A stretch of DNA of 64,000 nucleotides from Heterodontus francisci. Lineage: Eukaryota. The stretch is from positions 76,941,300 to 77,005,299 of the forward strand of contig NC_090387.1 of NCBI RefSeq assembly GCF_036365525.1, read 5' to 3'. Below the pieces are notes generated by a model. It saw only the letters and a program-made list of their open reading frames with translations, was not told where the DNA came from and made no database searches. Positions 1-57,534 of this stretch are shown in pieces (the first letter of the stretch is position 1; each line of letters begins with the position of its first letter). The position numbers and the translations under genes were made by a program.

Positions 1-320
1 TCTCTATCCCGCCTGAAGCATCGGTATCCTGGGATATTTAGTTGCCAATCATGCCCTTCCCTTAACCAAGTCTCAGTAATAGCAATAACATCATACTCCC
101 AGGTACTAATCCAAGCCCTAAGTTCATCTGCCTCACCGATTACACTTCTTGCATTAAAACAAATACACCTCAGACCACCAGTCCCTTTGCTTTCATCATC
201 TGCTCCCTGCCTACTCTTTCCCTTAGTCACGCTGACTTCATTATCTAGTTCCTTACTGGCTTTAGTTACTACATCCTTACTCTCCACTGACCTCATTTGG
301 TTCCCATCCCCCTGCCACAT
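1..320 (-). CDS. CR1 ORF2 N-terminus (APE endonuclease), open to the window edge
   Basis: ATG at 320-318 overlaps the ORF1 TAA. Frame reads MWQGDGNQ...GLRCICFNARSVIGEADELRAWISTWEYDVIAITETWLREGHDWQLNIPGYRCFRRDR with no stop. Confidence 0.85.
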   Translation of the reverse strand, partial: MWQGDGNQMRSVESKDVVTKASKELDNEVSVTKGKSRQGADDESKGTGGLRCICFNARSVIGEADELRAWISTWEYDVIAITETWLREGHDWQLNIPGYRCFRRDR

Positions 321-1267
321 TAGTTTAAACCCTCCCCAACAGCGTTAGCAAAAGCACCCCCAAGGACATTGGTTCCAGTCCGGCCCAGGTGTAGACCGTC
401 CAATTTGTAATAGTCCCACCTCCCCCAGAACCGGTCCCAATGTCCCAAAAATATAAACCCCTCCCTCCTGCACCATCTCTCAAGCCACGCATTCATCCTG
501 ACTATTCTTTCATTTCTACTCTGACTATTACGTGGCACTGGTAGCAATCCTGAGATTACTACCTCTGAGGTCCTACTTTTTAACTTGGCTCCTACCTCCC
601 TAAATTCTGCTTGTAGGACCTCATCCCGTTTTTTACCTATATCATTGGTGCCTATGTGCACAATGACAACTGGCTGTTCACCCTCCCCCTTCAGAATGTT
701 CTGCAGCTGATCTGAGACATCCCTGACCCGTGCACCTGGGAGGCAACATACCATTCGGGAGTCTCGTTTTCGACCACAGAACCGCCTATCTACTCCCCTT
801 ACAATCGAATCCCCTATGACTATAGCCCTTCCACTCTTTTTCCCGCCCTTCTGAACAGCAGAGTCAGCCACGGTGCCATGAACCTGGCTACTGCTGCCTT
901 CCCCTGGTGAGCCATCTCCCTCAACAGTATCCAAAACGGTATACCTGTTGTGGAGGGAGATGACCGCAGGGGACACCTGCGCTGCCTTCCTGCTCTTTCT
1001 CTGCCTTTTGGTCACCCATTCCCTTTCTCCCTCAGCAATCCTAATCTGCGGTGTGACCAATTCGCTAAACATGCTATCCACGACCTCCTCAGCATCGCGG
1101 ATGCTCCAAAGTGAGTCCATCTGCAGCTCCAGAGCCGTCATGCAGTCTAACAAGAGCTGCAGCTGGACACACTTCCTGCACGTGAAGGAGTCAGGGACAT
1201 CAGCCATGTCCCTGAGCTCCCACATTGAGCAAGAGGAGCATGTCACGGGTCTGAGATCTCCTGCCAT
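320..1267 (-). CDS. CR1 ORF1 protein (zinc finger / coiled-coil plus SGNH esterase domain), 315 aa
   Basis: CSSCSMW...CRKC, IVIGDSIVRG, HIGTNDI and DGLHL motifs typical of CR1 ORF1 esterases. Confidence 0.9.
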   Translation of the reverse strand: MAGDLRPVTCSSCSMWELRDMADVPDSFTCRKCVQLQLLLDCMTALELQMDSLWSIRDAEEVVDSMFSELVTPQIRIAEGEREWVTKRQRKSRKAAQVSPAVISLHNRYTVLDTVEGDGSPGEGSSSQVHGTVADSAVQKGGKKSGRAIVIGDSIVRGVDRRFCGRKRDSRMVCCLPGARVRDVSDQLQNILKGEGEQPVVIVHIGTNDIGKKRDEVLQAEFREVGAKLKSRTSEVVISGLLPVPRNSQSRNERIVRMNAWLERWCRREGFIFLGHWDRFWGRWDYYKLDGLHLGRTGTNVLGGAFANAVGEGLN

Positions 1268-1440
1268 TTTTAATCTTAAACTTAAACTTAGTTAAATGAA
1301 AAAGGAACGAAAAGTTTTTAACCAATCACACTATAAATCAAAAAAGAGAAATAGAAAAAGGCTTACCTTATCTACACACCACCGAGTCCTTTTTTTTTGG
1401 TTCGAGGAGGAGGGCGGGTGGTGTAGTGTCTCGGGTTCAG

Positions 1441-8241: not shown

Positions 8242-8284
8242 ATGTTAGCGAGTATGGTTTTTCTGTGTCTGAGTATTCACACAG
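8242..8284 (+). CDS. Gene A leader exon ([14 protein letters not shown])
   Basis: ATG, hydrophobic core, phase-1 donor ACAG|gtacca. Confidence 0.75.
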
Positions 8285-11200
8285 GTACCATTGCATTCAT
8301 TGCCCCAGTTACTTTTGATTTATAAAATGCTGCGTTATTAATTTAGCGAACCGTATTTTCTCTATCTAGATTATGTTTTACTGCCTTCTCTCTTCTGCCT
8401 TCATGGTGTATCTGCTATAATTAACCTGTACTTGTTATATTTCTGACAGCTGCTGACCACACTTCGTTCAGTGTGTCTCAAGCGCCCAAAGAAGCGATTG
8501 TATCTACAGGGGGGAACATCACTTTCTATTGTATATTTCCCATCTCTCAGGAACATTCCTGGGTACAGGTATTATGGTGGAAACAGGGTGAGAATGAATA
8601 CTTGCGCAGAAGCGCAGAAGGGAGAAGACGGTTTGGTCTGAAAAGTAAAGCAAGCGGTTACTTTCAGTTACTGAGCGTAAATATCCAAGACTCTGGAGTG
8701 TATCACTGCGCAGTGATCCGTCAGGGAGTACTGCGAGGAAATGGAACTGGATCACATCTAATTGTGCATGGTAAGTGTGAAAATCAGGAGAGCGGGACCG
8801 CCCTAAATATATCGAACATAACACACGGGGATGTTTTGAGACTGTTCTATCGCATCGTTTTTTCTTTGTATAGACATGACTATTAATACATTTCTCCATA
8901 AGTTAAATTATCTATTCGTCTTCTCTGTATTGAACTGCTAATTAAACATTCAATATCACAGGCAGAGTACTGCAAAATGTATCAATCTTAACCAATTGGA
9001 CTGTAATTATAAAGGCAATTTATACAGCAGATGTCTGTCAGTGCACATTGGGAACAAATTCCAAGCATTTAATTGACTGAAAATCGTTTATGTTAATGTG
9101 ACTCAACCAACATGCACACGGCTCTTAGCCCAGTTTTGATGTTCTGTCTACCCCCATCACTGTCTTGGCTGTTTAATATTTCTGAAATGAAGTCTCACAT
9201 AATGATAGCTTTGGGGATTTGAAAGCAATTTTACAGCGAACTGTTGACGAATGGATTCGCTCAGCAAACTCGAGTTGGAAACCTAAAGTTATCAGCTCAC
9301 TAACTTCCAATAAATTAGACTATAGAGAGGGACTATGTTGCTGAAACCTCCTGAGGTCCAACTGTGAGTTGCGAGTTATTCCTACACCGATTAAGCCCTC
9401 CTTTTATCATTAGGGCACTGCCTATCTGTGCATATCAAACACGAAAAGACTTAACGCATCCACTTGCCACCAATGTTAATGGACTTAATTCTTTGTACTA
9501 TGATTAGCATTAAACATTGATTAGCAAATTGTTGCGACTTGTCTGCCATGGAACTCAAAGTCAGGTAAAATTGAACAGATGCCAATCGTTATGAGAGTCA
9601 TAGAGTAGTCGAGTTGTACAGCATAGAAACAGGCCCGTCGGCCCACTGCGTCCATGTCGACCATAATGCCTATCTATACTACTCCGACCTGCCTACATTA
9701 ATTCCATATCCTTTTATGCCTTGTTCATTCAAGTACCTGTCTAGATGCCTCTTAAATGTTGCTACTGTTCCTGCCTCCACAACCTCCTCTGGCAGCTCAT
9801 TCCAGATACCCACTATTCTTTGTCTGAAACTTTTACCTCTTTGATCCCCTTTAAACCTCCTCCCTCTCACCTTAAATCTATGCCCTCTAGTTTTAGTCAC
9901 CGCTACCATGAGAAACAGATTCTGGTTCTCTACCCTACCTATGTCTTTCATAATTTTATATACCTCTATCATGTCCTCTCTCAGCCTCCGTCGCTCCAGG
10001 GAAAACAGAGATAAGGACGAGATATGTTTAGATGATGTGTGCAGCATGAAAAGGACAGGATTGCGACTGCTGCTATTGTGAGAAAACGGGCCGAATGCAA
10101 ATCAGAATCATATTTAATGTCTCACAATGATACACAATAACTTGACTTTGCTCATTCTCATTTCCGCAGTGGCCCCAACCCCACTAAAGATTGTCTCTAG
10201 GACTCCACAAAGGAATACATCTGCGTTTCTCACTCTTGTGTGTGAAACGGCTTCGTTTTATCCGGAAAATTTCACACTCACTTGGTACAAAAATGGCATC
10301 GAAACTGCCTTTGGAATACATACCAATAAAGTACAGAACACTGAGGGACTGTACGAAGTTTCCAGTTCTTTGGTTGAAACGCAATCTGTCCCGAGCGACA
10401 CCAATTATAGCTGCTTGGTATCCCATGTCTCCCTCAGGACTCCAGCTGTTGTCATCCATACTGTTTCTAAGTCCAATCAAGGTAGGAGACCAATAATTCA
10501 AAAAGGAGAATCAGCTACCGTTAAATTGGTAAAGAGATATATCCTACGCTCTGTGCATGTTAATAGTCATGATGATAGTCTACAGAAATCCCATGGGAAA
10601 TATCAAAGAAGATATCACATTCATGTTTATACAATAGAAATAAAGCCGTTGTGTTGTAAAAGCTGGCGCACAGATATTCTCAGTCAAACCTTATTTGCTT
10701 TCAGATTCCTTTAATTGTTATATATATCTAATAAACAAGAGTTTATATTTTCTTTACTATAATATTGCCTTACCTGCATATTATTAATGCCTTTTTAGTT
10801 TCTATACTTCCTATTTTAAACTATTTTATTCTTTACTGTTGCACCAAAACTGTTAATAGGAGCTGCAGTCATGTTGTTTGCACCATGACTTCTTTCAATG
10901 TCGTTCCCGATCCTGCCCAATTTTCGGCTACTTCCAGTGCAGAGCTCTGCAATTAACACTTGCACATAGTTTACTCCTCACCCGTTCACGAAAGGTTTAA
11001 CTGGGATCTGCTTCATAAACTTCATGGAAACTGTGCCCGCGGTACACCGTGAAAGAATAATCAATGAGCCAACGCTTGTTGATCTCCAATTGTATCCTTT
11101 CTTTAGTAAGCACAGTTCAGACAATGAACTGATTTATAATCGATTGTTGTAATCCAGAATTTGTGCGGATAGCGAAGAAACGCATGTGAAAAATCGCCTT

Positions 11201-14200
11201 CAATTTTCTCAAACTATATGTTCATAAATAAGGTGGACAAGAACACGAACACGTCTTTTGGTTATGGAAAACTGATTCTGTTAGCATTCTAAATCTCCTA
11301 AACCGTGTTTAAGATCCTTAAACCGATAATCTGTTTCGCAGATTAATCAGGAATGTGTCATCAATTCGATACAGAAGTTACTTCAAATATTTTGTCTGAA
11401 AAATAACATTTTGCATTTAAACATTCTTTCGGTCGTTCCATACCGCGAGGTTACTGAATGCATCCTATAGCTTAAACAATAAACTTTTAGAAAACGTTTT
11501 TATCCAAAATCCGCCTTAACATTATTTTCCTATTAATCCCGCAGATAGTGTCCATAATTCATTTTCCTTCTGGACTGCAGTGTGTGCGGTGGCTGGATTG
11601 GCGTTTCTCGTGCTGATGATAGTCATTGGGATGCGGTGTCGACTGCAGAATAATGAAAGTATGATCCCCTTCAAAATCTTGGTTTGAGTACAAAACCTCA
11701 GCGTGAGTGACAGTATCCGAGTACACAGCAGAAAAAGAAATCGATTCAGAATTAGAGCCGAAAACTATGGGCCAGTCAGCCTAACATGGGCAAATGCTAG
11801 AGCCCATTATTAAGGAAGAAATAGCTGAACATTTAGAAAAGCTTAATGCAATCAAACAGAGTCAGCATGGTTTTGTGAAAGGGAAATCATGTTTGACAAA
11901 TTTGCTAGATTTCTTTGAGGATATAACAAGTAGAGTTGATAAAGGGGAACTTGTAGATGTGTATTTGAATTTCCAGAAGGCATTCGAACTGGTGTCACTA
12001 AAAGATTATTGCACAAGATAGGAGCTCACAGTATTGAAGGTAATGCATTAACATGGGTTGAGGATTCGTTAACAAACAGAAGACAGAGAATCGGGATTAA
12101 TGGGTTTTTTCAGGTTGGAAACAGGTAACTAGTGGAGTACCACAAGGATCAATCCTAGGACCTCAATTATTTTCTATTTATATTAATGACTTGGAGGAAA
12201 TGGCAGAGTGAAATATATCCAAATTTGCTGACGATACAAAAATAGTTGGGAGGGCATATTGTGATGAGGACATAAGGAATCTACTAGGGGATATACATAG
12301 GTTGAGTGAGTGGGCAAAAACTTGGCAGATGGAGTTTAATGTAGGAAAGCACGAGGTCATGCACTTTGGTAGGAAGATTCAAAAGGCAGACTATTATTTA
12401 AAGAGAGACTTCAAAATAGTGCAGCACATTGGGATCTGGGTGTTCTTGTGCATCAAACACAAAAGGTTAGCATGCAGGTGCAGCAAGTACTTAAGAAGGC
12501 AAATTAAATTTTTGCCTTTATTGCTGGGGGTTGGAGTTTCAAGATAGGGAAATCTTATTAAAACTGTACAAAGTGTTGGTGAGGCCGCACCGAGAGTATT
12601 GTGTACAGTTTTGGTCCCCATATTTAAGAAAGGATATACTGGCATTGGAGGCAGTTCAAAGCAGATTCACTCGGCTGATTCCTGGGATGAAGGAATTGAC
12701 GTATCAAGAACGGCTAAACAGGTTAGGCCTTTATTTGTTAGAGTATGGATGAATGAGGGCTGATCTTATAGAAATGTACAAGATTCTGAGGGGGTTTGAC
12801 AGGATAGATGTTGAGGACATGTTTCCACGAGTGGGGGAATCTCGAGCTAGCGGACATAGTTACAGAATAAAGGGACACTTATTTAAAACTAAGAAGCGAA
12901 GGAATTTATACTCTCAGAGGTAGTTAATGTCTGGAATTTTCTATCCCAGAGACTTGTGGAGGCTAGATCACTGGAAGTATTAAAGAGGAGGGAGATAGAT
13001 TTTTGAAATATCGGGGAGTTGAGGGCTATGACGAGCTGGCACGAAAGAGGAGTTGAGGCCTGAGGCAGATCAATCATGATCTTATTGAATGGCGGGGCAG
13101 GCATGAGGGGCCGAATGGCCCATTCCTGCTCCTATTTCTTATGTTCTTATGTTCTATGTTCTAAAGTTAATAAACAGTATTACTGTTTTCAGGGAGCACC
13201 GACTGTTCCGAATGCGTTTTATAACAGAGGAATGCTCACAGAATCGCAATAAAAATGAAAGCCATCTTCTGGATTTTTTTCCAAAAGAAATTACCCCTTT
13301 GCAACTGGATAAATGAAATGTACCCTGACATACAATCACTTTCCCGTCAGTTCCGTTGTGGATGCGCAATTAGTTCACTCCGGCCGGAGAATGGTTGTAC
13401 ACATAGGAACATAAGAAATAGAAGCAGGAGTATGCCATCTGGCTCCCCACTCCTGCTTCGCGAGACAATAAGATGGCTGTTCTTCTACCTCAAGTGAACT
13501 TTCCCATCGTATTTCTACATCCCTTGATTCCCGTAGTGTCCAAAAGATTCCCTTATTTTCCGAGAAAAATCTCCACCCCCCCACCCCCCCCCCCCCCCCC
13601 CCCACTCCCCCATAACAACAAAAAACACTGCTGATCGCTACAAAGGTTAGGATTTCAAACACTTTCGGCATAATCCGAAATTGAAAACCATATTCAGCTT
13701 TGTTCTGACTCTAGACAATTCTTCGCAATCTCATACATGGAAACTGAGTAAATATTACAATCTTTCAATATCATTAAATTTCTTTCGTTTCCAGGTAAAG
13801 AAGAATGTGACACGGGACCGAACCGCTCTGAGGAACTGGTATGTTCATTCATTGATCCCGGCAGCTTGTTGAAATATCAAGAAAGAACATATCATAATTA
13901 CACCAGAACATTTTACGTTAATTTACTAAAAGCATTTGTCCGATCTCAGTGACTAATCCATATCCCCCCTTGCGTTGCTGATAAAAAAAAAGTTAAATGG
14001 TGAGAAACCAAAACCGCCTATTTCATTGAAAATGTACCAAGGTAACAATTGCTCATAGATTCATCTATTCTTTGAAATTGAAAAGAAACTTTATGTTATA
14101 AAGCTGTCGCCCTTTTAAACATTTCTGCAACACTCTTGTAGCGTGAACATTGACAGGTTTACATATTAGAGTGGCCAGAACGTGATCACTTTTCGCACTT

Positions 14201-14741
14201 TTGTAATTATCAATGAATTAGGGTTTGTGCACTTGATCCCGAGTCCAGGTGAATCTGTGCAATGCCTGATCAGCGCTACGTAAAACTGTTGAAGGCAATG
14301 ATCTAGTCACATAACCAAACATTTTCTTTCCGGCCCGTGCAGGGAGCAACGGCTGAGGTCATGCATTATGCTGCAATCAATTTGAGCAGAACAAGCAAAA
14401 CTCCAAGACATAAACGTGAAGAGGTGAGAACAGTGTTCGCTCAGGTACAGCTGAGTAATAGATCAGAGAAACATAGATCACGAGTCAAATATCAACATAC
14501 ATTAGATAAGGCAGGGTGCATAATTTGTTTCTGTTGACTTTGACCTTGTGCTATACCTAAGTTTATTTGTGTGTGCTTCGAATGGTTGCTTTGAACAGCT
14601 GTCCAAAAAACTTGCAAAACGAGAAATTAACAATATTTCCAAACATTGTCCTTACAGATCCAACGAAGGGGAACCGGTAACGACCTGACGTACGCGACTT
14701 TAGCATTCACAGGCTCAGAAAAAAACGGAGAAATGCAATAA
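8242..14741 (+). CDS. Gene A: inhibitory VJ-C1 IgSF receptor with SIRP-like tail; 7 exons 8242-8284, 8450-8770, 10170-10481, 11545-11658, 13795-13838, 14343-14444, 14658-14741 (339 aa as assembled)
   Basis: All introns GT-AG with compatible phases (1,1,1,1,0,0). Leader, V, C1, uncharged TM, and a tail with MHYAAI and LTYATL. Confidence 0.85.
8450..8770 (+). CDS. Gene A V-set exon with germline-joined J-like G strand
   Basis: VSQAP...ITFYC...VLWWK...DSGVYHC...[11 protein letters not shown]; acceptor ttctgacag, donor G|gtaagt. Confidence 0.95.
9590..10010 (-). mobile_element. CR1 LINE 3' end in gene A intron 2
   Basis: [20 protein letters not shown]...TRGHRFK...[11 protein letters not shown], the CR1 ORF2 C-terminus. 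Confidence 0.9.
10170..10481 (+). CDS. Gene A C1-set exon
   Basis: [21 protein letters not shown]...GLYEVSSSL...[10 protein letters not shown]: canonical C1-set FYP, W and CxVxH motifs; acceptor ttccgcag, donor G|gtagga. Confidence 0.95.
11545..11658 (+). CDS. Gene A transmembrane exon (no charged residue in the TM)
   Basis: [38 protein letters not shown]; acceptor cccgcag, donor A|gtatga. Confidence 0.85.
11750..13160 (+). mobile_element. CR1 LINE 3' half (degraded RT) in gene A intron 4
   Basis: [40 protein letters not shown]; ends in a (TTCTTATG/TTCTATG)n tail. Confidence 0.92.
13795..13838 (+). CDS. Gene A cytoplasmic exon 1 ([15 protein letters not shown])
   Basis: Strong polypyrimidine acceptor tttctttcgtttccag, donor CTG|gtatgt; converts phase 1 to phase 0 as required. 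Confidence 0.7.
14343..14444 (+). CDS. Gene A cytoplasmic exon 2 (ITIM-like MHYAAI; TVFAQ)
   Basis: [34 protein letters not shown]; phase 0-0; alternative donor after 14423. Confidence 0.75.
14658..14741 (+). CDS. Gene A last coding exon (ITIM LTYATL); extends to 14829 if one A is removed from the A7 run
   Basis: [27 protein letters not shown]; acceptor ccttacag. Confidence 0.8.
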   Translation: MQRRGTGNDLTYATLAFTGSEKNGEMQ

Positions 14742-15101
14742 CGAAAGAAGCACAGAGTATGCAACGCTGCAGACACACAAACAAAGAGGAGTAACAGGGG
14801 TCGTCTATACAGAAGCAAAAATCAATTAGCATTTTTTTTAGATGCTGAAGTCACGTTTGTGATGTGTGCTGATCACATTCCGCTGCCGTACCAGCTCCAG
14901 GCTTACGTGTACCGTGCGATGCCATGTCAGCAGATAATGCAGTCCATAGTAGTTACTTCCTGTTCAATTATTTGATGAACTTTATTTTCGCGGCGTTTAA
15001 GAAAAATCTGCATTTTTTTAAACTGAAGATATTTCTACTCTTTCGATTACACAGATACGCTAATAGCCTTGCTGTACCTAAGTATCTGCATACATGAATT
15101 G

Positions 15102-15107
15102 AATAAA
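15102..15107 (+). terminator. Candidate polyadenylation signal for gene A
   Basis: AATAAA about 360 nt after the stop codon, followed by a GT/T-rich stretch. Confidence 0.45.
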
Positions 15108-15582
15108 AAGGATTATAAACGAATCAACGACTCGTGTTCATTTTTGTTGAGTGATACTGCAAGACCTGTGTGTTGATTTATGTGTCGCAGTTACTGCATT
15201 CCGGCTTCCAGTCCAGGTGAGCGATTTAGAAGTGGAGCGGGTGCAGCTCAAATCAATGGACTCGTCCATCAACCTACTGAAAGTAGCTTCGAGCTGTTTA
15301 TGTCCCACACCATCTATCGCCACAGGTGACTATGTAGAATCATAAAATCATCCAGCACAGTGCCGACATTTTGAAAGAGTTACTCAGTTAGTCCCACTCT
15401 CAACCTCTTTCCCCAAAACCCTGTAACTTTCTCCCTTTCAATGTACATCGAATTCCATTTTGAAGTCTATTCCACTTATTCTTCTTCCAACGTTGTTATC
15501 CTACGGTGACACCTTGTTATTTTTTACAAAAATATCCATGCAATCGAAATCTGCTGCATTGCCTTTATTGATTCTTCAGAAG

Positions 15583-17094: not shown

Positions 17095-17570
17095 TAGTTA
17101 TTTTTTCTTCCTTTTTTTTTACATTCTTTTTTACATTTTTTACCATCGTTTTTTTTTTGCATTTATTTCATTTCATCTTAGTTTGTTCAGTTTGCTTATC
17201 CACTGTTTTTTTTCAGGTTTGCACATGCTGCTGTTCAATATTCAGTGTATTAACACCTAATCTGTACTAATGCTTTGTCTTTCAACACACCATTAACATA
17301 TTGTTTGCCTTTGCTCCGTGACCTTTTGGTCAGCTATGTGGCCTGGTCCAATCTAGACCTCCTTTGTTATCTCTTGCCCCACCCCCACATCACTTGCTTA
17401 TATAACCTGTGACTTTTCTAATATTTGTCAGTTCCGAAGAAGGGTCACTGACCCGAAACGTTAACTCTGCTTCTCTTTTCACAGATGCTGCCAGACCTGC
17501 TGAGTGGTTCCAGCATTTCTTGTTTTTATTTCAGATTTCCAGCATCCGCAGTATTTTGCTTTTATTTTAT
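17095..17570 (+). mobile_element. Penelope-like element terminal (pseudo-LTR) fragment
   Basis: Shares the terminal sequence (ACAGATGCTG...CCAGCAT...GTATTTTGCT) of the RT/GIY-YIG-bearing copy at 33960-37325. Confidence 0.8.
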
Positions 17571-21493: not shown

Positions 21494-24400
21494 TTAATAA
21501 AGTGTTCTCTTACCTTCACTGTAAGTTGTTTTTACATGGTCCACAATAATACCCGTCATTGCAAGTATTATCAAAACACTCAGAGCAAACCGAGCAAGAA
21601 TGAGGAGCCTGATGCTGAACCTATGACCTACAATGTGGATTAAAACAAAATATAAAACGGCTGTACATAAGTATTATCAAGTTGAAGCAACAATGATTGG
21701 TTTATACAGAGGAATTGGCTAGTCTAAATCTTACGCCATATGTATTGATATTAAATCACTTAAATCGGAGTTAACCGTCTGAAAGAAAAAAACTCAAATT
21801 GAGCTCGACAGACTTGGCACTATGGTAACGCCGACGATGGTGCCTTCCACTTCCATAGAGGCGCTGCCGTTTCCAGCTATCACCTATATCTCAGGCAGTA
21901 GTCTTCTTTTCATGCCCAGATGGAGGTTGTATGTGAACATAAGACTCCGATGGCTGCTTTGGATCGAACTGGTGCGCCCTACACTTTCTGTCGAGCTTTA
22001 CTAGCGATAAAGATACAGAGATACTGAACGGGATCGTTCAATTTACTTCTCAGTGGTTAAGCAAAGCAACGGCTTCCCACTGGAACCCGTGAAAATAATT
22101 TGGGTGGGCTGGTGCAACTCGGGTATCCCCACCTCCGCGGTCATGGAGCACCGCCAATTCAGCTTGTTGCCCACCCACCTGTTTCTAGCCTGCCCTGTGA
22201 ACTCTATCAGGAGCTCGATCTTCGATTTCTGACGGCTCTCCCGGACAAGCACATGTGTAGGAAATGCCGTCAGCTCGAGTAGCTTGAGCTCCCGGTTTTT
22301 GGAGCTTGAGCAGCAGCTGGAAACATTGTGGCCCATCCGCGAAGCTGCGAATTTGGCGCATAGCACTTTTTCGATGTGGTCACCCCGCAGCTTAAGCGTA
22401 TGCATGTGGAAAAGGAATGGATGGCCACCAGGCAGTCATGAAGGACCACACAGGTAGTGCCGGAATCGCCTGAATGCATCTCACTCACCAAGCGATATTC
22501 CATTCTGAATACCGGTCAGAGTGATGGTGACTCTGGCGGTGACGGTGGGTGGGGGCGCGGGGGGGAGGGGTGTGGGGGGCGGGGGGGGGGGGGGTGTGGT
22601 AAGAGACTAGGAAGCAGGACCTCAAAAGTAGCAATCTCCAGATTACTCCCTGTTCCACGCATAAGTGAATATTGAAATAGAAAGGTACAGTAGATAAATG
22701 TGTGCCTGGAGAGATGGCCATGAGGAAGGGCTTTAGATTTCTAAGACATTGGGACCGGTTCTGGACGCGTGGGACCTGTACATGCTGAGCAGGTTGCACC
22801 GGAACCTACCAGGAAATGTTTGCTTGCAGGGCGATTTACTAGTGCTACTGACGAGAGTTTAAACAACTTAACAGGCGTGTGGAAAATACCAAGTATTATG
22901 ACAAAGGAAAAACAAGGTGTACCGAGAATTAAGAGAGCAGATAGCACGATAGCAGGAAATAGTTAGGAAATAGGTGGGGTCAAAGTAAGAGGGAATGTCA
23001 TAAGTTCTAAATTAGGTTTACCGTGCCAGCATGTGACTGCACGGACTGTGATAAATAAGGTTAGTAAGCTGCAGGCACAGATAGCCAAATGGACATATCT
23101 TGTTATGACAATAACAGAGATCTAGCTCAAAAAACGAGAGCAGTGGATAATAAATATTCATGGATACAAGGTGCTTAGGAAAGACAGAGAAGGAAAGGAA
23201 AGAGGAGGGGTAGCAATACTGATTAAGGAGAATATTACGGTGTTGGAGAGAGAGCATGCCCCAGAGTAAATAAGGACAAAATCTATATAGTTAGAGCTAA
23301 GAAACAAGGGCAGTACCATTCCAGTATTGGGTGTTTCCATAGGCCACCAACTAGCGGGAAAGATATAAAGGACCAAATTCGCAAGGCAATTACAGAGAGG
23401 TGCAAGAATTATAGAGTAGTTATAATGGGGGACTTTAATTAATTTTCTATAGTCACAACTGGATAAGGCAAGACTGCAGATGTAAGATCTGTTCCATTGG
23501 TTGTAGGATTGCTTAGACCTGTTTATCACATGCTGCTTCTGCTGTTTGGCATGCAGGTAGTCCTGTCTTATAGCTTCACCAGGCTGACACTTCATTTTAG
23601 GTATGCCTGGTGCTGCTCCTGGCATGCCCTCCTACACTAGTCATAGAATCAGGGTTGGTCCCCGAGCTTGATGGTAACGGTGGAATGGGGGATATGCCAG
23701 GCCATGATGCTAAAGGTTGTGGTCGAATACAATTCTGTTGCTGCTGATGGCCCACTGTGCCTCATTGAGGTATTAGGTGCCAGATTTGTTCGAACTCTCT
23801 CCCATTTAGCATGGTGGTAGTGGCACACTACCACCTCGAGGCAGCCAACATCCCCAAGTTATACACACTACTGAGCCTGCGGCGCTTGAGATGGCTTGGC
23901 CATGTGAGCCGCATGGAAAATGTCAGGATCCTCAAGGACCTATTGTACAGTGAACTCATCACTGGTATCAGACCCACCGGCCGTCCATGCCTCCGCTTTA
24001 AAGACGTCTGCAAGCGCGACATGAAATCCTGTGACATTGACCACAAGTGGTGGGAGTCAGTTGCCAAAGGAGAAGAAGAAGGGACTGGCACACAACATGT
24101 GGGACAAAGATAGCAGTCATTTCGACAAAGTTGGATCTATTAAGTAAAGCCAACACGGATTTATTAAGGACAAATAGTGTTTAACAAAAGTGATCAGTTT
24201 TCTTTTTTTTTGACAAGAATAAGCAAGACTAAAATAAAAGCAAAATACTGCGGATGCTGGAAATCTGAAATAAAAACAAGAAATGCTGGAACCACTCAGC
24301 AGGTCTGGTAGCATCTGTGGAAGGAGAAGCAGAGTTAACGTTTCGGGTCAGTGACCCTTCTTCGAAGTTCCGAAGAAGGGTCACTGAACCGAAACGTTAA

Positions 24401-27400
24401 CTCTGCTTCTCTTTCCACAGATGCTGCCAGACCTGTTGAGTGGTTCCAGCATTTCTTGTGTACATTATATAAGCAAGACTAAAACATTGGTTCATCCTCA
24501 GCTAGAGTATTGTGCTCATTTCTAGACAGCACACTTTCAGGGGGATGGAGTGTATTAGAGAGAGGGCAGCAAAGATTCACGAAATGGTTCCAGTGATGAG
24601 GAATTTCAGCAACATGGATAGATTGGCGAAGTTCTCTTTGGAGGAGACAAGATTAGAGGAGATTTGATAGAGGCATTCAAAATCATTAGGGTTCTGGACT
24701 GGGAAGAAAATCCTCCCATTGGTGGAAGAATCGAGAACCAGAGGACACCAGTTTACGGCGATTGGCAAAAGAAGCAACGGCAACATGAAGAAAAACGTTT
24801 TTACACCGGGAGTGATTAGGATCTGGAATGCCCTGCATGACAATGTGGTGGTAGCAGATTCAATTGAGGCCTTTAAGAGAGAATTGGATAATTATTTGAT
24901 CAGAAATATTTTTCTGTATTATGAGGAAAAGGCAGGGGACTGAGAATAGATGAGTTGCTGCTGCAGAGGGCCGCACGGGCATAACGAACTGAATGGCCTC
25001 CTTGTGTGTTATAACAATTTTAGGATTCAGTGATCCCACTCAAGTCGCCTAAATTTGATTCTCTTAATGGAAAACTAGCTCTCACCAGCACAGGGACTAA
25101 GTGGCAAATTGTCTTCATCTGCACAATAATTGCCATCATTCCTTGAATCTACTTTAGCAACTACAGTGGTTAAAATGTGTTCCGAACGTTTCTTGAGCCC
25201 TTATTTATTAGCCTGTGGACTCCAGATCCATGGTGGCAAACAGAGCGGATTTAGAAACAATTCGGCATGCCTCGCCACTTTACAATAAATAGAGCGCAGA
25301 GGTTGATGAAGGAAATGCTAGGAAGAGTTCATTTATATTTTTGCAAAAGTTCTACATGTGAAGCAAATTCAGGCTGACGTCATTCTGGTTGATTTTGACA
25401 AATGGTATGTCGGCCAGTCTCTCTTTGAGGATCAGTAGAATTCTAGCAGAGCTCTATCCGATTCAATTTAGGATCAATGCAGTCGAGACTGTTGATGTAC
25501 TATATAGAGGTGTCGCCTCTAGCAATAGCCGTAAATGTGCTAATACCATCAAATAGGGACAGAAGAGCACGAGATTAATAATATTCAAGGAAATCTGAGT
25601 ATTCGAGGAAATGCTCCTGCGCGATGTTCAGGGTGGCACAGTGGCGCAGTAGTTAGCACCGCAGCCTCACAGCTCCAGCGACCCGCGTTTAGTTCTGGGT
25701 ACTGTCTGTGCGGAGTTTGCAAGTTCTCCCTGTGATCGCGTGGGTTTCCTCCCACAGCCAAAGACTTGCAGGTTGATTTGTAAATTGGCCATTGTAAATT
25801 GCCCCTAGTGCAGGTAGGTGGTAGGGAATATGGGGTTAATGTAGGGTTAGTATAAATGGGTGGTTGTTGGTCGGCACAGACGTGGTGGGCTGAAGGGCCT
25901 GTTTCCGTGCTGTATCTCTAAATAAAAAGTAAAATAAAAATATGTTGGCGGTAGTTCCACGCTGCACATGCCCCAATCTTACCTTTCTGAACAATGTAGC
26001 TGACATTGGCGGGCACCAGAAGAGAGACATGATATACCAGGCAGGTATAAACAACTCCGCTAGGGACAGGTTGTGCTTCTTCCAAAAAACTGGAAACCTC
26101 ATATAGTCCCTCTGCGCTCCAGCTTTTCACAGTTTCTACTCCGGTCAAAATTTCGACACCGTCCCTTCGCCAGGAGGTTACTAACTGCTCCGGATAAAAG
26201 GCAGCTGTTTTACACTCGAGTTTCAGAGAAGTAGTTGAAATCCCTTCAACAGGAACGATTTCCAGCGGGGTGGGGGGAACTTAGAAAGAAATATATATAC
26301 AGGCAATTTTGTGTTCACTATAAAGAATCCCATCCTCATTTGCTTATGCTTGTTATGATGTTAAAGTCCTACTATCACATTAGTTACCCGTTAAAAAAAA
26401 ACTTTGTGTTTCATTTGTTTGATAAATCGTTTCACGGCGCAGAGCAAAATTGCAAATGACACACAAAAAGAATGATGCTCAGAGCTGGTAATATGCAGGG
26501 CGGCAATCGTCACTGTTCTGAATGGAAATATCAGATCCTGAAGCGGTATTGGTTTTGGCAGCAGTTGTTCCGTGTGAGAATTCCGTCCGAATTTATCGGA
26601 CAGGTCTGTACGGAACAGTGGAATCCTCTCTTGTTATTCAATAACAACCTTTGATGTATTAAACATTTTGCGTGTGTTTTCTTTTCAAATTTGGGTGTCT
26701 TTCGTATATCGCATGTGCTATAAACATTTAACGGTGAACAATGAGATGAAATTTGTTGCTAATATTTGCATTATATATCGAAATATTTTTATGTCTACAT
26801 ATGCTGCAGACAGAATGCTGTTATATGATTAGATCGAATCCGTTCACTAAAATTTACTACACAACATATTGATGTTTGTGGTGGAAATTTTAGATCGTGT
26901 AGCTTTCACGTAAGGAATTTTCTCCGGAGTGGGAATCGAATCTTGGAGATTTTTCAGATCATGTCGTTAATTATGGATTGCGGCGTAAATCACAACCTCC
27001 ATACAGATGAGGAAAAGCGAAAGTTAAATCATAACTCAGAATGCATGCCTTATATAATCTCTGAGTTTTTGCCTCTTCCAAGTCCATTCTGGCTTTTCTT
27101 TTTTCGTTCATGGGATGTGAGCGCCAGCATTTATTATCTGTTCCGAATTGCCCTTGGTCTGTTGAAAACCTTTTGCCTGCCGAAGATTCGGCTTATATAG
27201 AACATAGAACATTACAGCGCAGTACAGGCCCTTCGGCCCTCGATGTTGCGCCGACCTGTGAAACCATCTGACCTACACTATTCCATTTTTATCCATATGT
27301 CTATCTAATGACCACTTAAATGCCCTTAAAGTTGGCGAGTCTACTACCGTTGCAGGCAGAGCGTTCCACGCCCCTACTACTCTCTGAGTAAAGAAACTAC

Positions 27401-30316
27401 CTCTGACATCTGTCCTATATCTATCACCCCTCAACTTAAAGCTATGTCCCTTCGTGTTTGCCATCACAATCCGAGGAAAAAGACTCTCACTATCCACCCT
27501 ATCTAACCCTCTTATATCTTATATGTCTCTATTAAGTCACCTCTCCTCCTTCTCTCTAACGAAAACAAAGAACAAAGAAAATTACAGCACAGGAACAGAC
27601 CCTTCGGCCCTCCAAGCCTGCGCCGATCCAGATCCTCTATCTAAACATGTCGCCTATTTTCTAAGGGTCTGTATCTCTTTGCTTCCTGCCCATTCATGTA
27701 TCTGTCTAGATACATCTTAAAAGACGCTATCGTGCCCGCGTCTACCACCTCCGCTGGCAACGCGTTCCAGGCACCCACCACCCTCTGCGTAAAGAACTTT
27801 CCATGCATATCCCCCCTAAACTTTTCCCCTCTCACTTTGAACTCGTGACCCCTAGTAATTGAATCCCCCACTCTGGGAAAAAGCTTCTTGCTATCCACCC
27901 TGTCTATATATCTCATGATTTTGTACACCTCAATCAGGTCCCCCCTCAACCTCCGTCTTTCTAATGAAAATAATCCTAATCTGCTCAACCTCTCTTCATA
28001 GCTAGCGCCCTCCATACCAGGCAACATCCTGGTGAACCTCCTCTGCACCCTCTCCAAAGCATCTACATCCTTTTGGTAATGTGGCGACCAGAACTGCACG
28101 CAGTATTCCAAATGTGGCCGAACCAAAGTCTTATACAACTGTAACATGACCTGCCAACCCTTGTACTCAATACCCTCAAAACAACCTCAAGTCCCTCAGC
28201 CTTTCCTCGTAAGACCTTCCCTCCATACCAGGCAACATCCTAGTAAATCTCCTCTGCACCCTTTCCAAAGCTTCCGCATTCTTCCTATGAATATGAATCC
28301 TACAATCGTCTTTTACTCAAATGAATATGTGTCTGCTCAATCTATATTCACCGTTTAGCTTGAAGTAGAGCAAATTATGGCATTGCAATGTTTTGTTTTT
28401 AACAGTTCATGACAATTTCCTTAATATATTTCCTCTAGATTTTTGCTTACCGAATTTGTAGTAATAGCAAGATGTTAAATTAATGGCATTATTATTTAGA
28501 AAAATATTAAGACCTTTATTCTCAGCAGCATCCTATTAACGGTCAAACAAAGCTCAAAATTCCTCCTTTCTTTTATCCTGGATTTTTTTTTAGCTAGAAT
28601 ATATAGCGTGCTAGAATTTCCGTGGAGTAGAGGAGGGCGGTGTTCTCCTACTCTTCTACCATAACGCCAGTCTGCGATTGTTGGAGTGTATATGTAAATC
28701 GTGAATTGGAAAGTTCAGTGATATCCTCCCTACATTTAACATGCTGTGAGAGTATAACCGAAAGTCCAATTGGCAGATTAACAGAGGTCCAAATAGGTGC
28801 ATTGGGTTCCTATACTCTCCTGCAAGCTCAAGGAATTGGGATGGAACCTGGCAATGAAGCTAAAATCAACACCACACCGCTCAGTAGATTGTAAGATTTC
28901 TTTGTAAACTGAGATTAGCAGCCTCAAACAAGATCTCGCTGGACACAAGTGCACAGCTTAAATATGGAGATAGGAAGAAGAATAGGCCACTCAGCCCCTC
29001 GACCCTGTCCCGTCATTCAGTTAGATCATGGTTGATTTTTACCTCAAATCCATTTGTCCACTATCCGTTGGTAAGCCAACCTAACAAAAATATATTCACC
29101 TTAAGCTTGGAAATGCTATGTGTCCCACCTTCCACAGCGTTCTTTGGGAGAGAGTTCCAAATGTTGGATAATACTGCAGATAAAAATATTAGGCTGGCAA
29201 GTTCAAGCAGTTAGGCCAATCATTTCCTATTGTATAAAATATCCAGGTTGTAGCAGGACGCTGTTCTTCTGAACTTATAATTAAGGCACCTTGTTGGGGT
29301 GGAATAGATAGCCTTTAATGTGAAATAGAAGACTTGATCTTGAGGTTTTAAAATTATTTCTATTGTCACTCCTTGGCACCGTTATTTTGGTGAGAAGGTG
29401 TCTGGCCATCTAATTTGATTAATTAATTTGAAGCTAAGATTTAAACATTTATACTATTTGGGAAACATGTCTTTGTAACAATTGCAACTGTACTTCAAAA
29501 AGAACTCATCGGATGTAAAGTATTTTTGAATGTCATGACGACAATCTGGTGGATGAAATTGGTCTCGGGCAAAAGCCCAAATCGGATATTAATGAATCCG
29601 TGGCCGTTGCACACCGGAATCAACGGAAAAGAAAATCCAGAGAAGTGTAGAACGAATTTTCTATCACCAATTTTTCGTCCAGCGATAAAAGTTCAAATTA
29701 CGTATATCACACACAGCTGAAAAACACCCACTCCCCGGTACAATGACACTTACCATACACAGTAATCTGGGAGCCACTTCCATTTCCAGCAAAGTTTTGT
29801 GAATATCTTACTTTACAGTAATATACTCCGGAGTCTGCGACACTCGCATTTAGGACATGAAACGAACCACTTCCCTTTGCCACATTAAATCGCTTTCTGC
29901 TGTCTGGTTCTAGAAACGAATCATTGCCGCGTCTCCACCAATAAATATCAGGAGCATCTTGAAATATGGGAAATATGCAGAACATGGAAACATTTGCACC
30001 TCTGGCCACTTTCAAGAATTTAGGGAATTGATCCACTTTGCTTGAAGTTACTTCAGCGGCTATCATAAAATGAAAAGAATGATGATATAGTGTGCATATT
30101 TTATAGAAAGAACAAATATTAGAACTTAGAATTTTAAAACATCACTAAATTGATAACGTAACTTCAAAGACGGAAGAAAGAAATGTTCACAAAACCTGAG
30201 GAACTTTGATAACATCAGCTTTTTATCGATAAGCGTGGAACTGCAAGATAAACAAACACACCTTTGCAAAAAATTCCCAGAAAAAATATACACGAAATCC
30301 AGGAGTTGACCATCAT
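21494..30316 (-). CDS. Gene B: activating-type VJ-C1 IgSF receptor; exons 30316-30262, 30059-29754, 26279-25983, 21627-21514 (then an unidentified small exon, or read-through to the stop ending at 21494)
   Basis: All four exons are open and in phase 1 with GT-AG boundaries; TM contains Arg; short tail. Confidence 0.82.
21514..21627 (-). CDS. Gene B transmembrane exon with intramembrane Arg
   Basis: GHRFSIRLLILARFALSVLIILAMTGIIVDHVKTTYSE; paralogous to 62851-62957; acceptor cacattgtag, donor G|gtaaga. Confidence 0.85.
22190..23450 (+). mobile_element. Degraded CR1 LINE (ORF1 remnant and endonuclease) in gene B intron 3
   Basis: CRKCRQLE and SRTSKVAISRLLPVP match ORF1 at 320-1267; GGGVAILIKE-type endonuclease remnant. 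Confidence 0.8.
23460..23825 (-). mobile_element. LINE fragment of the same family as 45630-47450
   Basis: Shared sequence GCATGCAGGTAGTCCTGT...GCTTCACCA with 47400-47445. Confidence 0.6.
23828..24070 (+). mobile_element. RTE-clade LINE 3' fragment
   Basis: RRLRWLGHVSRM...KDLLYSEL...RPTGRPCLRFKDVCKRDMK, the typical RTE ORF C-terminus. Confidence 0.85.
24100..25020 (+). mobile_element. CR1 3' fragment interrupted by a Penelope palindrome
   Basis: QHGFIKDK, SRTRGHQF and IRIWNAL motifs. Confidence 0.75.
24235..24468. mobile_element. Palindromic Penelope pseudo-LTR insertion with 16-bp target-site duplication (TSD)
   Basis: Inverted arms centred near 24365; ATAAGCAAGACTAAAA at 24219-24234 and 24469-24484. 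Confidence 0.85.
25632..25940 (+). mobile_element. HE1/V-SINE-like SINE just past the gene B C1 exon
   Basis: Same head, core and tail as 15583-15880. Confidence 0.85.
25983..26279 (-). CDS. Gene B C1-set exon
   Basis: VPPTPLEIVP...LKLECKTAAFYPEQLVTSWRRDG...GLYEVSSFL...YTCLVYHVSL; donor G|gtaaga. Confidence 0.93.
27197..28290 (-). mobile_element. Two nested CR1 3' ends in gene B intron 2
   Basis: Younger copy (about 27569-28177; [15 protein letters not shown]...) splits an older CR1 3' end; AAAACAA at 27562-27568 and 28178-28184. Confidence 0.88.
29754..30059 (-). CDS. Gene B VJ exon
   Basis: KVDQFP...VSMFC...IYWWR...DSGVYYCKVRYSQNFAGNGSGSQITVY; donor G|gtaagt. Confidence 0.95.
30262..30316 (-). 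CDS. Gene B leader exon (MMVNSWISCIFFLGIFCK)
   Basis: 55-nt exon, same length as the gene D leader; donor AAAG|gtgtgt. Confidence 0.75.
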
Positions 30317-31684
30317 TCTCAGTGAGGAACATTAAACTAGCCAGCGACTACAGGAAATCAAAAAGCTCCTGGACCTCTGGAAGCCACGGGTTTGCATTTG
30401 ATCTAGAGTTACGTGTACTGTCACGTGCTAATTGTACACTTTCAAATAATGGATTTCCTTTGTTAAACCAGATCACTGAGGCATAACTTTCAGCAAGGAT
30501 TGTGATATGATCCAACTAGGCCATAACTGAAAGCAAACAGGAAGGGACATTTTTTCCCGAAATTAATTCTGTCGATTGTTGGAATATGTTTCTTAAACAA
30601 GTACTATAGTCAATTGCTTTTGAATGATGATCAGCCTGGTAAGTCTGGAGGAATGGGATGAGATGTTTCCGGTTATCGGGTGGCGGCGACATCCGAATCA
30701 CAGGGAAAGTTTCGCAATGCTCGTTAATTTTAGACAGGTCCGAATGCATTCTAAAAGATAATCCTGTACGAGAGATGGGGGCCTGACCAATATTGTGAGC
30801 GGAGTGTAGTTCACACTTATGATTAACTGCAGTTACTTAAAAGATCAATGACACTTAAGGATGTTGTAGTTATATGGGTAACTCACATTTGTCAAACCTG
30901 CGCAATTTTTGTAACTTACGTATCTTTGTAACTTGGCTCCTTCCAGATTGCACTTCATTCTGGGTGCAAACGAGGAGGAAACTGGCTGTGTATGCTCAAT
31001 GCTTATTCTTATGACTATAAAGCACCGTTTATTGTGTTGCTTGATTTCATTTCGCTGATGCCACCAATACACCCTGATCAGTTGAAACAGCCCTCCTGCC
31101 TGCGCATTGAATGCAGTTGCACAATTATGACTAACAGTCGAACTGTTATGTTAATGAGCTTAAATTCATGCTTAAATGCAACGACCCACATTCTTCTGGA
31201 AGTAGTAAGAGTGTGTTTATCTGATCAATGTTTGTGCAAATGTAACAAATGCTTAACTTCCGACGTGATGGGAAACTGTTGGATAAACTGACCGGTCCAC
31301 CGCATACCTATCAATCTTATTAATCTATTTCCTATGAATGTTGGAACTAGCAAGTGAGAAAAAAAAGAATGAAAGAGGAACCACCCACCGTGTCAGTTTA
31401 TGAGCGTTGTATAGAATCCCCTCATCCTGTTGCCTGATCATAGTGCCCAGATCCACCTGAATTCACAGACGCTGGCCTCGTGGCTTCCGGTATAGGATGC
31501 CAGTGTCTATCATAGTCTATGGGTATCCCATTGACGTTGCCTTCTGATCAAATACCCCATTGCAAACTTATTTGATGCGTGTATGTACGGTGAACATCCA
31601 TGTTGCCATTTATCCCATTCACTATGTATCTGTATTGTTGCAGGTTGTATGGCTACTTTCCATGTCCGGTTCGTTTATTTTGCT

Positions 31685-31822
31685 ATAATAAAAGCAAAAT
31701 ACTGCGGATGCTGGAAATCTGAAACAAAAACAAGAAATGCTGGAATCACTCAGCAGGTCTGGCAGCATCTGTGGAAAGAGAAGCAGAGTTAACGTTTCTG
31801 GTCAGTGACCCTTCTTCGGAAC
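31685..31822 (-). mobile_element. Solo Penelope pseudo-LTR with 13-bp TSD
   Basis: CGTTTATTTTGCT at 31672-31684 and 31823-31835; absent from the paralogous region near 53750. Confidence 0.85.
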
Positions 31823-55200: not shown

Positions 55201-56750
55201 GCAAACCCCGGGGTTCGAAAGCCCACGAGCTTGGTGATTCCTTGCAGCATACGCCAAGTGTGTCGCTCAGAATGGCGGTGAATCCTTGGTGTTGCACATA
55301 TTTTTGTTGGGTATTTTTTACAGAGATGTTTGTGTTTATCTTACAGCTCCATACTATGGAAAACATCTACTGTTAAAAAAAATCTCTTTTTTGAACATTT
55401 TTTTTCATTGTGTCGTTAATTCTTTTAATTTTCTTTATTTTTAATATCTAAGTTCTAATATGTGTTCTTGTTCTATAAAGTATACACATTACATCAGCAT
55501 TCTTATTTATTTTCTGGTAGTCGTTGAAGTGATTTCAAGCAAAGTGGATCGATGTCCTAAACACTTGAGGGTTGCCAGTGGTGCAAATTTTTCCAACTTC
55601 TGCACCCAATCTTTATTGGAGATTCGACGAGGAAAGGTTTCTAGAGCCAGACATCAGAAAGTGCGTTAATGTGTAAAAGGGACGTCTTCACTTTACGTTC
55701 TGAATGCGAGTGCTGCCGGCATTACTGGAGTGCATTACTGTAAAGTAAAACATCATCAAAAATCTATTGAGATGGAACTAGCTTCCAGATTCTGTGTACG
55801 GTAAGTGTCATTGCAATGGGGAGTGGGAGATTTACAGCTGTGGGCAACATATGTAATCTGATCTTTAATCGCTTTTAAACGAAAACTGGTGATAGCAAAT
55901 TTGTTCTACACATATCAGGGTTTTCTTTTCCATTGACCCTGGAGTACAACGGCTGCCGATTCGCTATCGCCCATTTTGCGCTACTACCCAAAATCAATTT
56001 CACTCGATTCACTAGTCTCACGACATTCCAACGTGTATTTGATTCAGCGAATGCGTTTTGAAGTTCAGTTACAATTATTTTGGAGGCAAGATACCGAATT
56101 AGTATAAACGTTTAAAGCTTGGCTTGGAATTAATAAATGGGATTAGGTGGCCAAGTAGTTTCTCACCAAAATACCAGTGCTAAAGGGCGACAATCGACAG
56201 AATTTAACATCTCCTTGGACAGGGGCTAAATGACCTACTCTTGTTCCTATGCCCACAGTATATGTTTCATACTTGTGCCAATAATAACGTTTTTGAGACG
56301 CTAAACTCATTTCACAAAAGGTTTGCTGTAACCTATCGAGAGGGGATGTATTGATCTTACTTCAATGCTGGATTCCACCCAAGTCCTAGGAGGGAAGGTA
56401 CTCAATTATCCTGTTTGAAGCTCTGCTGTATGCCAATTCGACTTTTTTATACACTCACAACCCGTTAAGTACTGGCAGGATTTCACCGAAGCATTCTATA
56501 AACGCCTGGGCTCACATATTTGTAATTTACGATTCTCATTTACAATCCACCAACCCGCCGCGGAAGTTGCCGCAAGAGATCAAGTGAACATAGCCTCCCA
56601 CCTCCTCTGCGAAAATCCTGCCGCATTTCAAATTCTGCCGAATATAGTAGATACGTGGAAAAAGAATGTAAGAATACTGAGCTTTGTTGGACAACCACAC
56701 AATAAAGGCTAACATAATGTCCAACTTAATAGGCCACAGATTTAACAATT
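52230..56750 (+). repeat. Inverted segmental duplicate of the gene B upstream region, leader, V exon and part of intron 2 (about 33350 to 28500)
   Basis: Collinear diverged matches, e.g. 52231-52350 to the reverse complement of 33230-33350, 53220-53260 to 32300-32335, and 55180-55215 to 30385-30420. Confidence 0.85.
55272..55800 (+). pseudogene. Gene C: leader plus VJ pseudogene, no C1 or TM exon found
   Basis: Leader (55272 to about 55325) has a 1-nt deletion and a GT>AT donor loss; V exon 55521-55800 is 280 nt versus 303-306, with an internal deletion and frameshifts; homology stops inside intron 2. Confidence 0.88.
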
Positions 56751-57327: not shown

Positions 57328-57534
57328 ATATAAAATAAAAACAAGAAATGCTGGAACCACTCAGCAGGTCTGGCAGCATCTGTGGAAAGAGAAGCAGAGT
57401 TAACGTTTCGGGTGACCTGAAACGTTAACTCTGCTTCTCTTTCCACAGATGCTGCCAGACCTGCTGAGTGGTTCCAGCATTTCTTGTTCTTATTTCAGAT
57501 TTCCAGCATCCGCAGTATTTTGCTTTTATTTTAT
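57328..57534. mobile_element. Palindromic Penelope pseudo-LTR insertion with 14-bp TSD
   Basis: Near-perfect arms of about 80 bp centred near 57413; GCTTCTGATATTTA at 57314-57327 and 57535-57548. Confidence 0.88.

Follow-up and report, generated by a model that had tools for sequence, protein, structure and literature searches.

A transcribed frameshift clips the tyrosine-motif tail of a SIRP-like V-C1 receptor gene in a horn shark

Introduction

The 64-kb stretch of horn shark (Heterodontus francisci) DNA analysed here, hereafter the window, contains a gene for an immunoglobulin (Ig)-type receptor whose cytoplasmic tail stops just beyond a homopolymer. Seven A lie at 14719-14725, the frame as assembled ends at TAA 14739-14741, and the shifted frame stays open to TAG 14827-14829. 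An earlier note on this DNA, made from its letters alone, had described this arrangement, and it was confirmed in the sequence. The V exon of the gene is 100% identical to XP_067906051.1 (P0001), a protein of 332 aa from the same species for which NCBI gives the name CD276 antigen homolog, and the early stop of that model is the TAA of the window. The locus raises the question of whether the stop is an error or a real change, what tail the gene carried before it, and what the receptor would lose by it. An open frame of 34 codons is by itself within chance (p about 0.14).

Gene structure and expressed product

The gene was joined from seven exons (Table 1). A contig of run X5 (depth 14, 1375 nt) contains two GT..AG joints, for which reason the run was taken as RNA; the contig matches 14656-15051 with 0 differences and 0 gaps and has its 3' end at 15051, and its loose end before 13795 is the end of exon 4. 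The length of this RNA fits the full coding sequence, in that the 856 nt upstream of exon 5 equal 790 coding nt plus 66. As this leaves no space for a further Ig exon, the receptor has a single C1 domain. The acceptor of the last exon, at 14658, reads ttacag/ATC. An AlphaFold model of the protein has a pLDDT of 70.9, with the tail disordered.

Table 1. Features of the receptor gene and of related genes in the window
Feature	Position	Strand	Evidence or remark
Exon 1, coding part: start codon and leader	8242..8284	+	AG/GT boundaries; translation identical to P0001
Exon 2: joined VJ-type Ig V domain, GxG strand at end	8450..8770	+	100% to P0001; Pfam V-set
Exon 3: single Ig C1-set domain	10170..10481	+	Pfam C1-set, E 9e-11
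Exon 4: uncharged transmembrane (TM) helix	11545..11658	+	Sequence; helix 226-263 in predicted model
Exon 5: short cytoplasmic exon	13795..13838	+	RNA joint 13838>14343, GT..AG
Exon 6 in its observed spliced form, with Tyr motif 1 (MHYAAI; Tyr codon 14367-14369)	14343..14423	+	RNA joint 14423>14658
Ancestral end of exon 6: VRTVFAQ, decayed motif 2 (Phe for Tyr)	14424..14444	+	Skipped in the RNA contig
Exon 7, expressed coding part: motif 3 (LTYATL; Tyr codon 14691-14693) and stop TAA 14739-14741	14658..14741	+	
Interval holding the frameshift, including the A7 run 14719-14725	14717..14737	+	Frameshift position scanned with 8 homologues
Lost coding tail (3' UTR at present), with ITSM-type motif 4 (TEYATL; Tyr codon 14758-14760)	14742..14829	+	Lies within the RNA contig
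End of that tail: terminal motif 5 (VVYTEA; Tyr codon 14806-14808) and old stop TAG 14827-14829	within 14742..14829	+	
AATAAA, probable polyadenylation signal (inferred)	15102..15107	+	Sole AATAAA/ATTAAA within 14740-15400
V-C1 gene facing the receptor gene	21514-21628, 25980-26280, 29755-30060	-	Arg early in TM helix (exon 21514-21628)
Broken V exon of the same family: stop and frame breaks	about 55526-55800	+	Intact V (58744) lies 3 kb downstream
Second V-C1 gene	58744-59046, 60886-61180, 62851-62952	+	Arg in TM exon 62851-62952; close in sequence to the minus-strand gene

The earlier note had reconstructed a long form of 368 aa. The arithmetic is right for a seven-exon join that uses a donor at 14444 (CAG/GTACAG), the product of which has 339 aa in the assembled frame and 368 aa after removal of one A. 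However, the RNA contig and the NCBI model both splice from a donor at 14423 (GAG/GTGAGA), so that the observed product has 332 aa, and a long form on the observed splicing, with VRTVFAQ dropped, would have 361 aa. Of the two donors, the one at 14423 is closer to the consensus, and the Val that creates its GT occurs in none of the 21 homologue records matched at motif 2. Its use takes 21 bases off exon 6 and reduces the distance between the two tyrosines that remain from 37 to 30 residues. They stand at residues 287 (MHYAAI) and 317 (LTYATL) of a 332-aa product without any TxY/ITSM-type motif, which thus has two tyrosine motifs compared with the four tyrosines of a SIRPalpha-type tail. Where the window gene has Phe in motif 2, homologues carry Tyr. 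Motif 2 is also altered or absent in Mobula, Mustelus and Stegostoma relatives, and to judge from these sequences its decay in the window gene may be older and shared.

The lost frame and the ancestral tail

Proteins of the sevengill shark Heptranchias, compared with the window by tblastn, matched the shifted frame at 14719-14823 (60%, E 1.2e-6) and at 14719-14820 (69%, E 3.7e-6). When the distal frame was scored against 11 homologues, none of 1000 shuffles reached the score for nine of them, and 66 and 22 of 1000 did so for the other two. The assembled frame read past its stop gave scores that 113-971 of 1000 shuffles reached, i.e. chance, and the third frame was weak, with 8 and 12 of 1000 for two Heptranchias proteins and 181-991 for the remaining homologues. 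The shifted frame shares 20/29 residues with Heptranchias P0004, 23/31 with Heptranchias P0010 and 17/29 with Mustelus P0006; measured in this way at the protein level, the lost tail is about as conserved as the rest of the tail (exon 6: 21/34, 19/33) and the Ig domains.

An LTYATL-type motif is present in 24 of the 47 proteins compared (isoforms counted separately). A later tyrosine motif follows in 23 of these 24, at a distance of exactly 23 residues in 19 of the 23, and the sole exception is the protein of the window. The other 23 of the 47, which are fragments, short-tailed or differently ending models, have no LTYATL-type motif, and short tails are therefore not rare among the records of the family. 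The family tail is a repeated module in which [VL]xYxxL is followed by TxYxx[LIT] 23 residues on, and motif 4 is kept in the closest full-tail relatives, namely Mustelus P0006, Stegostoma P0191 and Heptranchias P0047/P0004. By this protein comparison the long tail is the ancestral form, conserved in other sharks, rays and chimaera. The earlier note had come to the same view, and relatives stopping near EMQ, which it had named as the observation that would speak against it, were not seen in the homologue comparison.

In the horn shark itself, the paralogues P0045, P0029/P0192, P0031/P0046 and P0044 keep a distal motif. One of them (P0045/P0013, elsewhere on the chromosome) shows a complementary loss, with motif 3 lacking its Tyr and motifs 1, 2, 4 and 5 remaining. 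Among P0017, P0034, P0108, P0006 and P0029, tail length varies by whole ITIM+ITSM modules, from one to three or more, a pattern that suggests exon duplication and loss.

The gene belongs directly to this family: members from Heptranchias, Mustelus and Scyliorhinus match it at 64-72% over V-C1-TM. Relatives were found in sharks, rays and chimaera, many of them annotated as SHPS-1-like or SIRP-beta-like, and within the cartilaginous-fish V-C1 cluster the NCBI names are SHPS-1-like, SIRP-beta-1-like, tapasin-related-like and CD276 homolog. In two trees of cartilaginous-fish proteins, the first leaving out rows with <150 aligned residues and the second made from 26 chosen rows, the gene falls in a group (support 95/90 and 94/95) that also contains a horn shark paralogue and proteins of Mustelus, Scyliorhinus and Stegostoma. 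Its ectodomain branch is of ordinary length (0.14-0.16), and the trees do not settle one-to-one orthology. A profile search that yielded 130 new proteins, 10 of which were looked up by name, gave no closer relative than the earlier ones, the best new one having 53% over 225 residues. As a separate observation, residues 310-321 of P0009 match a short repeat found in the window at 17534-17569, 24230-24265, 31684-31719 and 57498-57533; the C-terminus of this NCBI model is probably, from the match, a mis-annotated repeat exon.

The site of the lesion is less sharply defined than its effect. Summed over 8 homologues, the score is 955-979 whichever single base of 14717-14733 is taken out (970 for the A run). 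Loss of two bases at 14732-14736 gives 971-982 and brings the spacing back to the modal 23 residues. As the one-base and two-base scans score alike, the lesion is not assignable to the A run, which the earlier note had treated as the place of the mutation. Slippage in the A run would be the likeliest type of mutation. Nor can the intact state of the lost tail be used as a clock. Single changes that make a stop number 17 of 306 in it, and at a rate of 7e-10 per base per generation, taken from the accessible part of PMC10587355, plus an assumed share of indels, a break would take 1.1-2.5e8 generations on average. With so few stop-making changes and so long a wait, an intact dead tail gives no date for the frameshift. 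A protein search with the 41-aa dead frame returned 1 candidate, none scoring, and no congener protein, which is weak evidence.

The frameshift in DNA and RNA

A DNA contig of run X1 covers 13760-15160 with 0 differences and 0 gaps relative to the window. X1 and X5 derive from one sample, the probable source animal of the window, and library types are absent from its record. Four DNA runs of this sample contain all of the 77 words sampled from 14340-15150 (share 1.00). Four of the 13 runs listed were aligned to the window. Run X7, from another organism, covers 14831-15006 alone, with 5 differences, and begins just past the old stop, and RAD-seq run X10, from another animal, gave no reads here. 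The frameshift is present in the DNA and the mRNA of the sequenced animal; this evidence comes from one animal, and contigs drop or collapse variants.

The earlier note had left two explanations side by side, a sequencing error in the homopolymer or a real allele. For the former, in which sequencing or assembly produced the A7 and the genome has an intact frame, it can be said that the break lies in or beside a homopolymer, that the dead tail is free of stops and matches the remaining tail in conservation, and that both contigs come from the same sample, with library types off record. However, independently assembled DNA and spliced RNA contigs carry the letters of the window without a gap at the run, which contradicts an assembly error; the four DNA runs contain all sampled words; and a dead tail is expected to stay intact for very long anyway, given the mean wait above. 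An artefact is thus extremely improbable, and the real allele stands.

A real allele need not be the common one. The source animal may be heterozygous, or the clipped form may be rare, with most horn sharks making the long tail. Immune receptor clusters are commonly polymorphic, the site is covered by a single animal, and collapsed contigs would hide a second allele. Yet both contigs show the clipped form, the word shares are alike in the other three DNA runs (1.00) and in a second RNA run (0.53), although the sampled words may miss the run, and 0 differences over 1401 bases suggest a homozygous stretch. We regard this reading as unlikely, though far from negligible.

The distal frame could also be regained after transcription, through acceptors at 14713, 14719 or 14731 or through slippage on the A run. 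It is intact, and the AG dinucleotides at 14704, 14713, 14719, 14731 and 14758 are all in register with it. The acceptors at 14713, 14719 and 14731 would give TEYATL but lose LTYATL. Further, their pyrimidine tracts are poor, seven A are short for efficient slippage, NCBI lists one protein in the cluster, and the single RNA contig uses 14658 and has no indel, even if contigs drop minor forms. Such a rescue is very improbable.

Neighbouring genes

The V and C1 exons of the two neighbouring genes in the window are 39-50% identical to those of the receptor gene. Both neighbours carry Arg in the TM helix, as activating receptors do. Their last exons, and the leader of the minus-strand gene, were not located in the 64-kb window. 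Related ectodomains are thus found in one cluster with either an ITIM tail or a charged TM residue, and by analogy with established families the layout would be that of a paired inhibitory/activating receptor cluster. The window also contains ORF fragments that, judged by eye, look like pieces of LINE retrotransposons: one at 320-1291 (minus strand) with an esterase-like ORF1, and reverse-transcriptase tails in introns at 11780-13100 and 27641-28186.

Consequences of the clipped tail

The explanation that we consider likely is that a real, transcribed frameshift removes the distal tyrosine motifs of the receptor, with weaker SHP-1/SHP-2 recruitment as the predicted result. According to the accessible part of PMC8631942, bivalent ITIM+ITSM binding at a spacing of about 25 residues is optimal for PD-1 and BTLA, loss of the ITIM or the ITSM lowers binding, and Ala at pY+1 favours SHP1. 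The family tail would correspond to two ITIM+ITSM modules with a tyrosine spacing of about 23 residues, on which Src-family phosphorylation would be followed by docking of the tandem SH2 domains of SHP-1/SHP-2. Stops in a last exon escape nonsense-mediated decay, and since the new stop lies in the last exon the mRNA should do so. The clipped protein would then still be made, reach the surface and bind its ligand, and its remaining motif or motifs would give a reduced inhibitory signal, possibly with a lean to SHP-1, since Ala at pY+1 is retained in both. Paralogues with distal motifs remain in the same species and would make the loss tolerable, and the frameshift would be a single event in the birth-and-death process that paired-receptor clusters usually undergo.

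By analogy with human PD-1 and BTLA, the clipped receptor should be a weaker inhibitor. The Met at position -2 of motif 1 does not fit the usual ITIM consensus, and this motif may for that reason be weak. Both SH2 domains might nevertheless still dock on two ITIMs spaced by 30 residues, and then little would be lost.

A less favourable reading sees in the gene a redundant copy at an early stage of decay to a pseudogene or decoy, whose clipped tail has no meaningful signalling role. The tail has two separate lesions, several paralogues are intact, and the same cluster contains a broken V exon. However, the mRNA is spliced and, by its length, complete, and the V, C1 and TM exons are intact. The motif 2 lesion is possibly old and shared, as this motif is also lost or altered in the Mustelus, Stegostoma and Mobula relatives. 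Nor is there a long branch, although slow shark evolution would mask a recent relaxation. Decay of this kind is rather unlikely. It should be noted that the decay reading and the rare-allele reading overlap with the preferred explanation of a clipped, weaker inhibitor rather than exclude it.

A more far-reaching proposal can be made, which taken as a whole is decidedly doubtful. Cartilaginous fish would possess a SIRP-type cluster with a four-tyrosine tail homologous to that of SIRPalpha, a design that would predate tetrapods, and one horn shark copy would have been retuned. The new donor and the frameshift would together have removed both ITSM-type motifs and kept both ITIMs with Ala at +1, bringing them from 37 to 30 residues apart. 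The outcome would be an ITIM-only, SHP-1-leaning receptor, or segregating long and short alleles like the inhibitory-receptor polymorphisms of mammals.

The stakes of the single frameshift are low, as it is ordinary and expected that, in a receptor cluster of many copies, one copy loses its tail. For annotation, XP_067906051.1, named a CD276 homolog, would be read as a member of a SIRP-like cluster with a natural truncation and not as a B7 ligand or an assembly error. The gene also offers a natural experiment on how far an ITIM+ITSM tail is impaired once the ITSM is gone.

Comparison with SIRPalpha and other receptors

The NCBI name points to B7-H3/CD276, which was considered and rejected. A V plus a C2-type domain is typical of B7 ligands. 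Here the C1-set profile scores 42.4 bits, above its cut-off of 21, and C2-set_3 scores 20.1 bits, below its cut-off of 27. The gene is instead a V-C1-TM inhibitory-type member of the SIRP-like cluster of cartilaginous fish.

The likeness to SIRPalpha, for which a bat record and the human ectodomain (PDB 2wng) served as references, consists of a joined VJ-type V domain, a C1-set domain, an uncharged TM helix and a family tail of two ITIM plus TxY-type modules. The V exon (8450-8770) ends in GNGTG... and is a Pfam V-set, in keeping with the joined VJ type. The tails of P0004, P0017 and P0023 share 25-27 identities in 71-72 positions with bat SIRPalpha P0169 (XP_054429919.1), a protein that came from the profile search; this is a score reached by 0/2000 shuffles, and that of P0045 shares 23/74 (1/2000); these were composition shuffles, and convergence of motif classes is compatible with the result. 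All four proteins are collinear with P0169 through most or all of the four-motif tail. The earlier note had claimed that a SIRPalpha-like tail of four motifs would return here on removal of one base. The collinearity bears out its view of the family tail, but the restoration was overstated because motif 2 has Phe and is spliced out in the observed RNA, so one base would not restore four motifs in this gene. All four SIRPalpha motifs that it quoted are present in P0169, and three of them are given in the accessible part of PMC5413580, where the PD-1 motif that it quoted (TEYATI) was not found.

There are also clear differences from SIRPalpha. The window gene has one C1 domain and not two (332 aa against 504 aa in P0169), its V domain barely aligns to the SIRPalpha V domain (10 of 34, local), and its expressed product has two of the four motifs. 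Indirect signals conflict. The top ESM feature match of a Heptranchias relative is SIRPalpha (0.97). In contrast, PDB sequence and fold matches are mostly antibodies and T-cell receptors (TCRs), SIRPalpha being 16th by sequence, and Foldseek with the AlphaFold model returned antibodies and TCRs at low TM-scores, without separating SIRP from other V-C1 folds. On these sequence and fold comparisons, identity as a true SIRP is not established.

In the accessible text of PMC11599192, SIRP is listed among the joined-VJ members of the Ig superfamily, and joined-VJ and VJ-C1 genes (SIRP, NKp30, PRARP, UrIg) are treated there and in the accessible text of PMC10751288 as ancient relatives of antigen receptors; a shark V-C1 cluster is not described in those parts of either source. 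The literature search, with subscription journals mostly outside it, found no account of the shark cluster or of the frameshift. The wider interest lies in the family: sharks, rays and chimaera carry V-C1 receptors with tails that align to SIRPalpha, whereas a recent survey lists the SIRP family, in its accessible part, under Tetrapoda (PMC13262535).

With PD-1 and BTLA, the likeness of the shark receptor is limited to motif logic. In the family an ITIM is followed about 23 residues on by TxYxxL, near the 25-residue spacing of these two, and the lost TEYATL fits TxYxx[aliphatic] (consensus TxYxxV/I). PD-1 and BTLA themselves belong to the CD28-related receptors and have one Ig domain, without a C1. 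Paired receptor clusters such as SIRPalpha/beta, CD300, LILR and KIR resemble the locus in its layout, an inhibitory-type gene lying by charged-TM relatives and a broken copy, and differ from it in that the Arg of the shark neighbours sits near the start of the TM helix. In such clusters, truncating alleles of the tail are usual.
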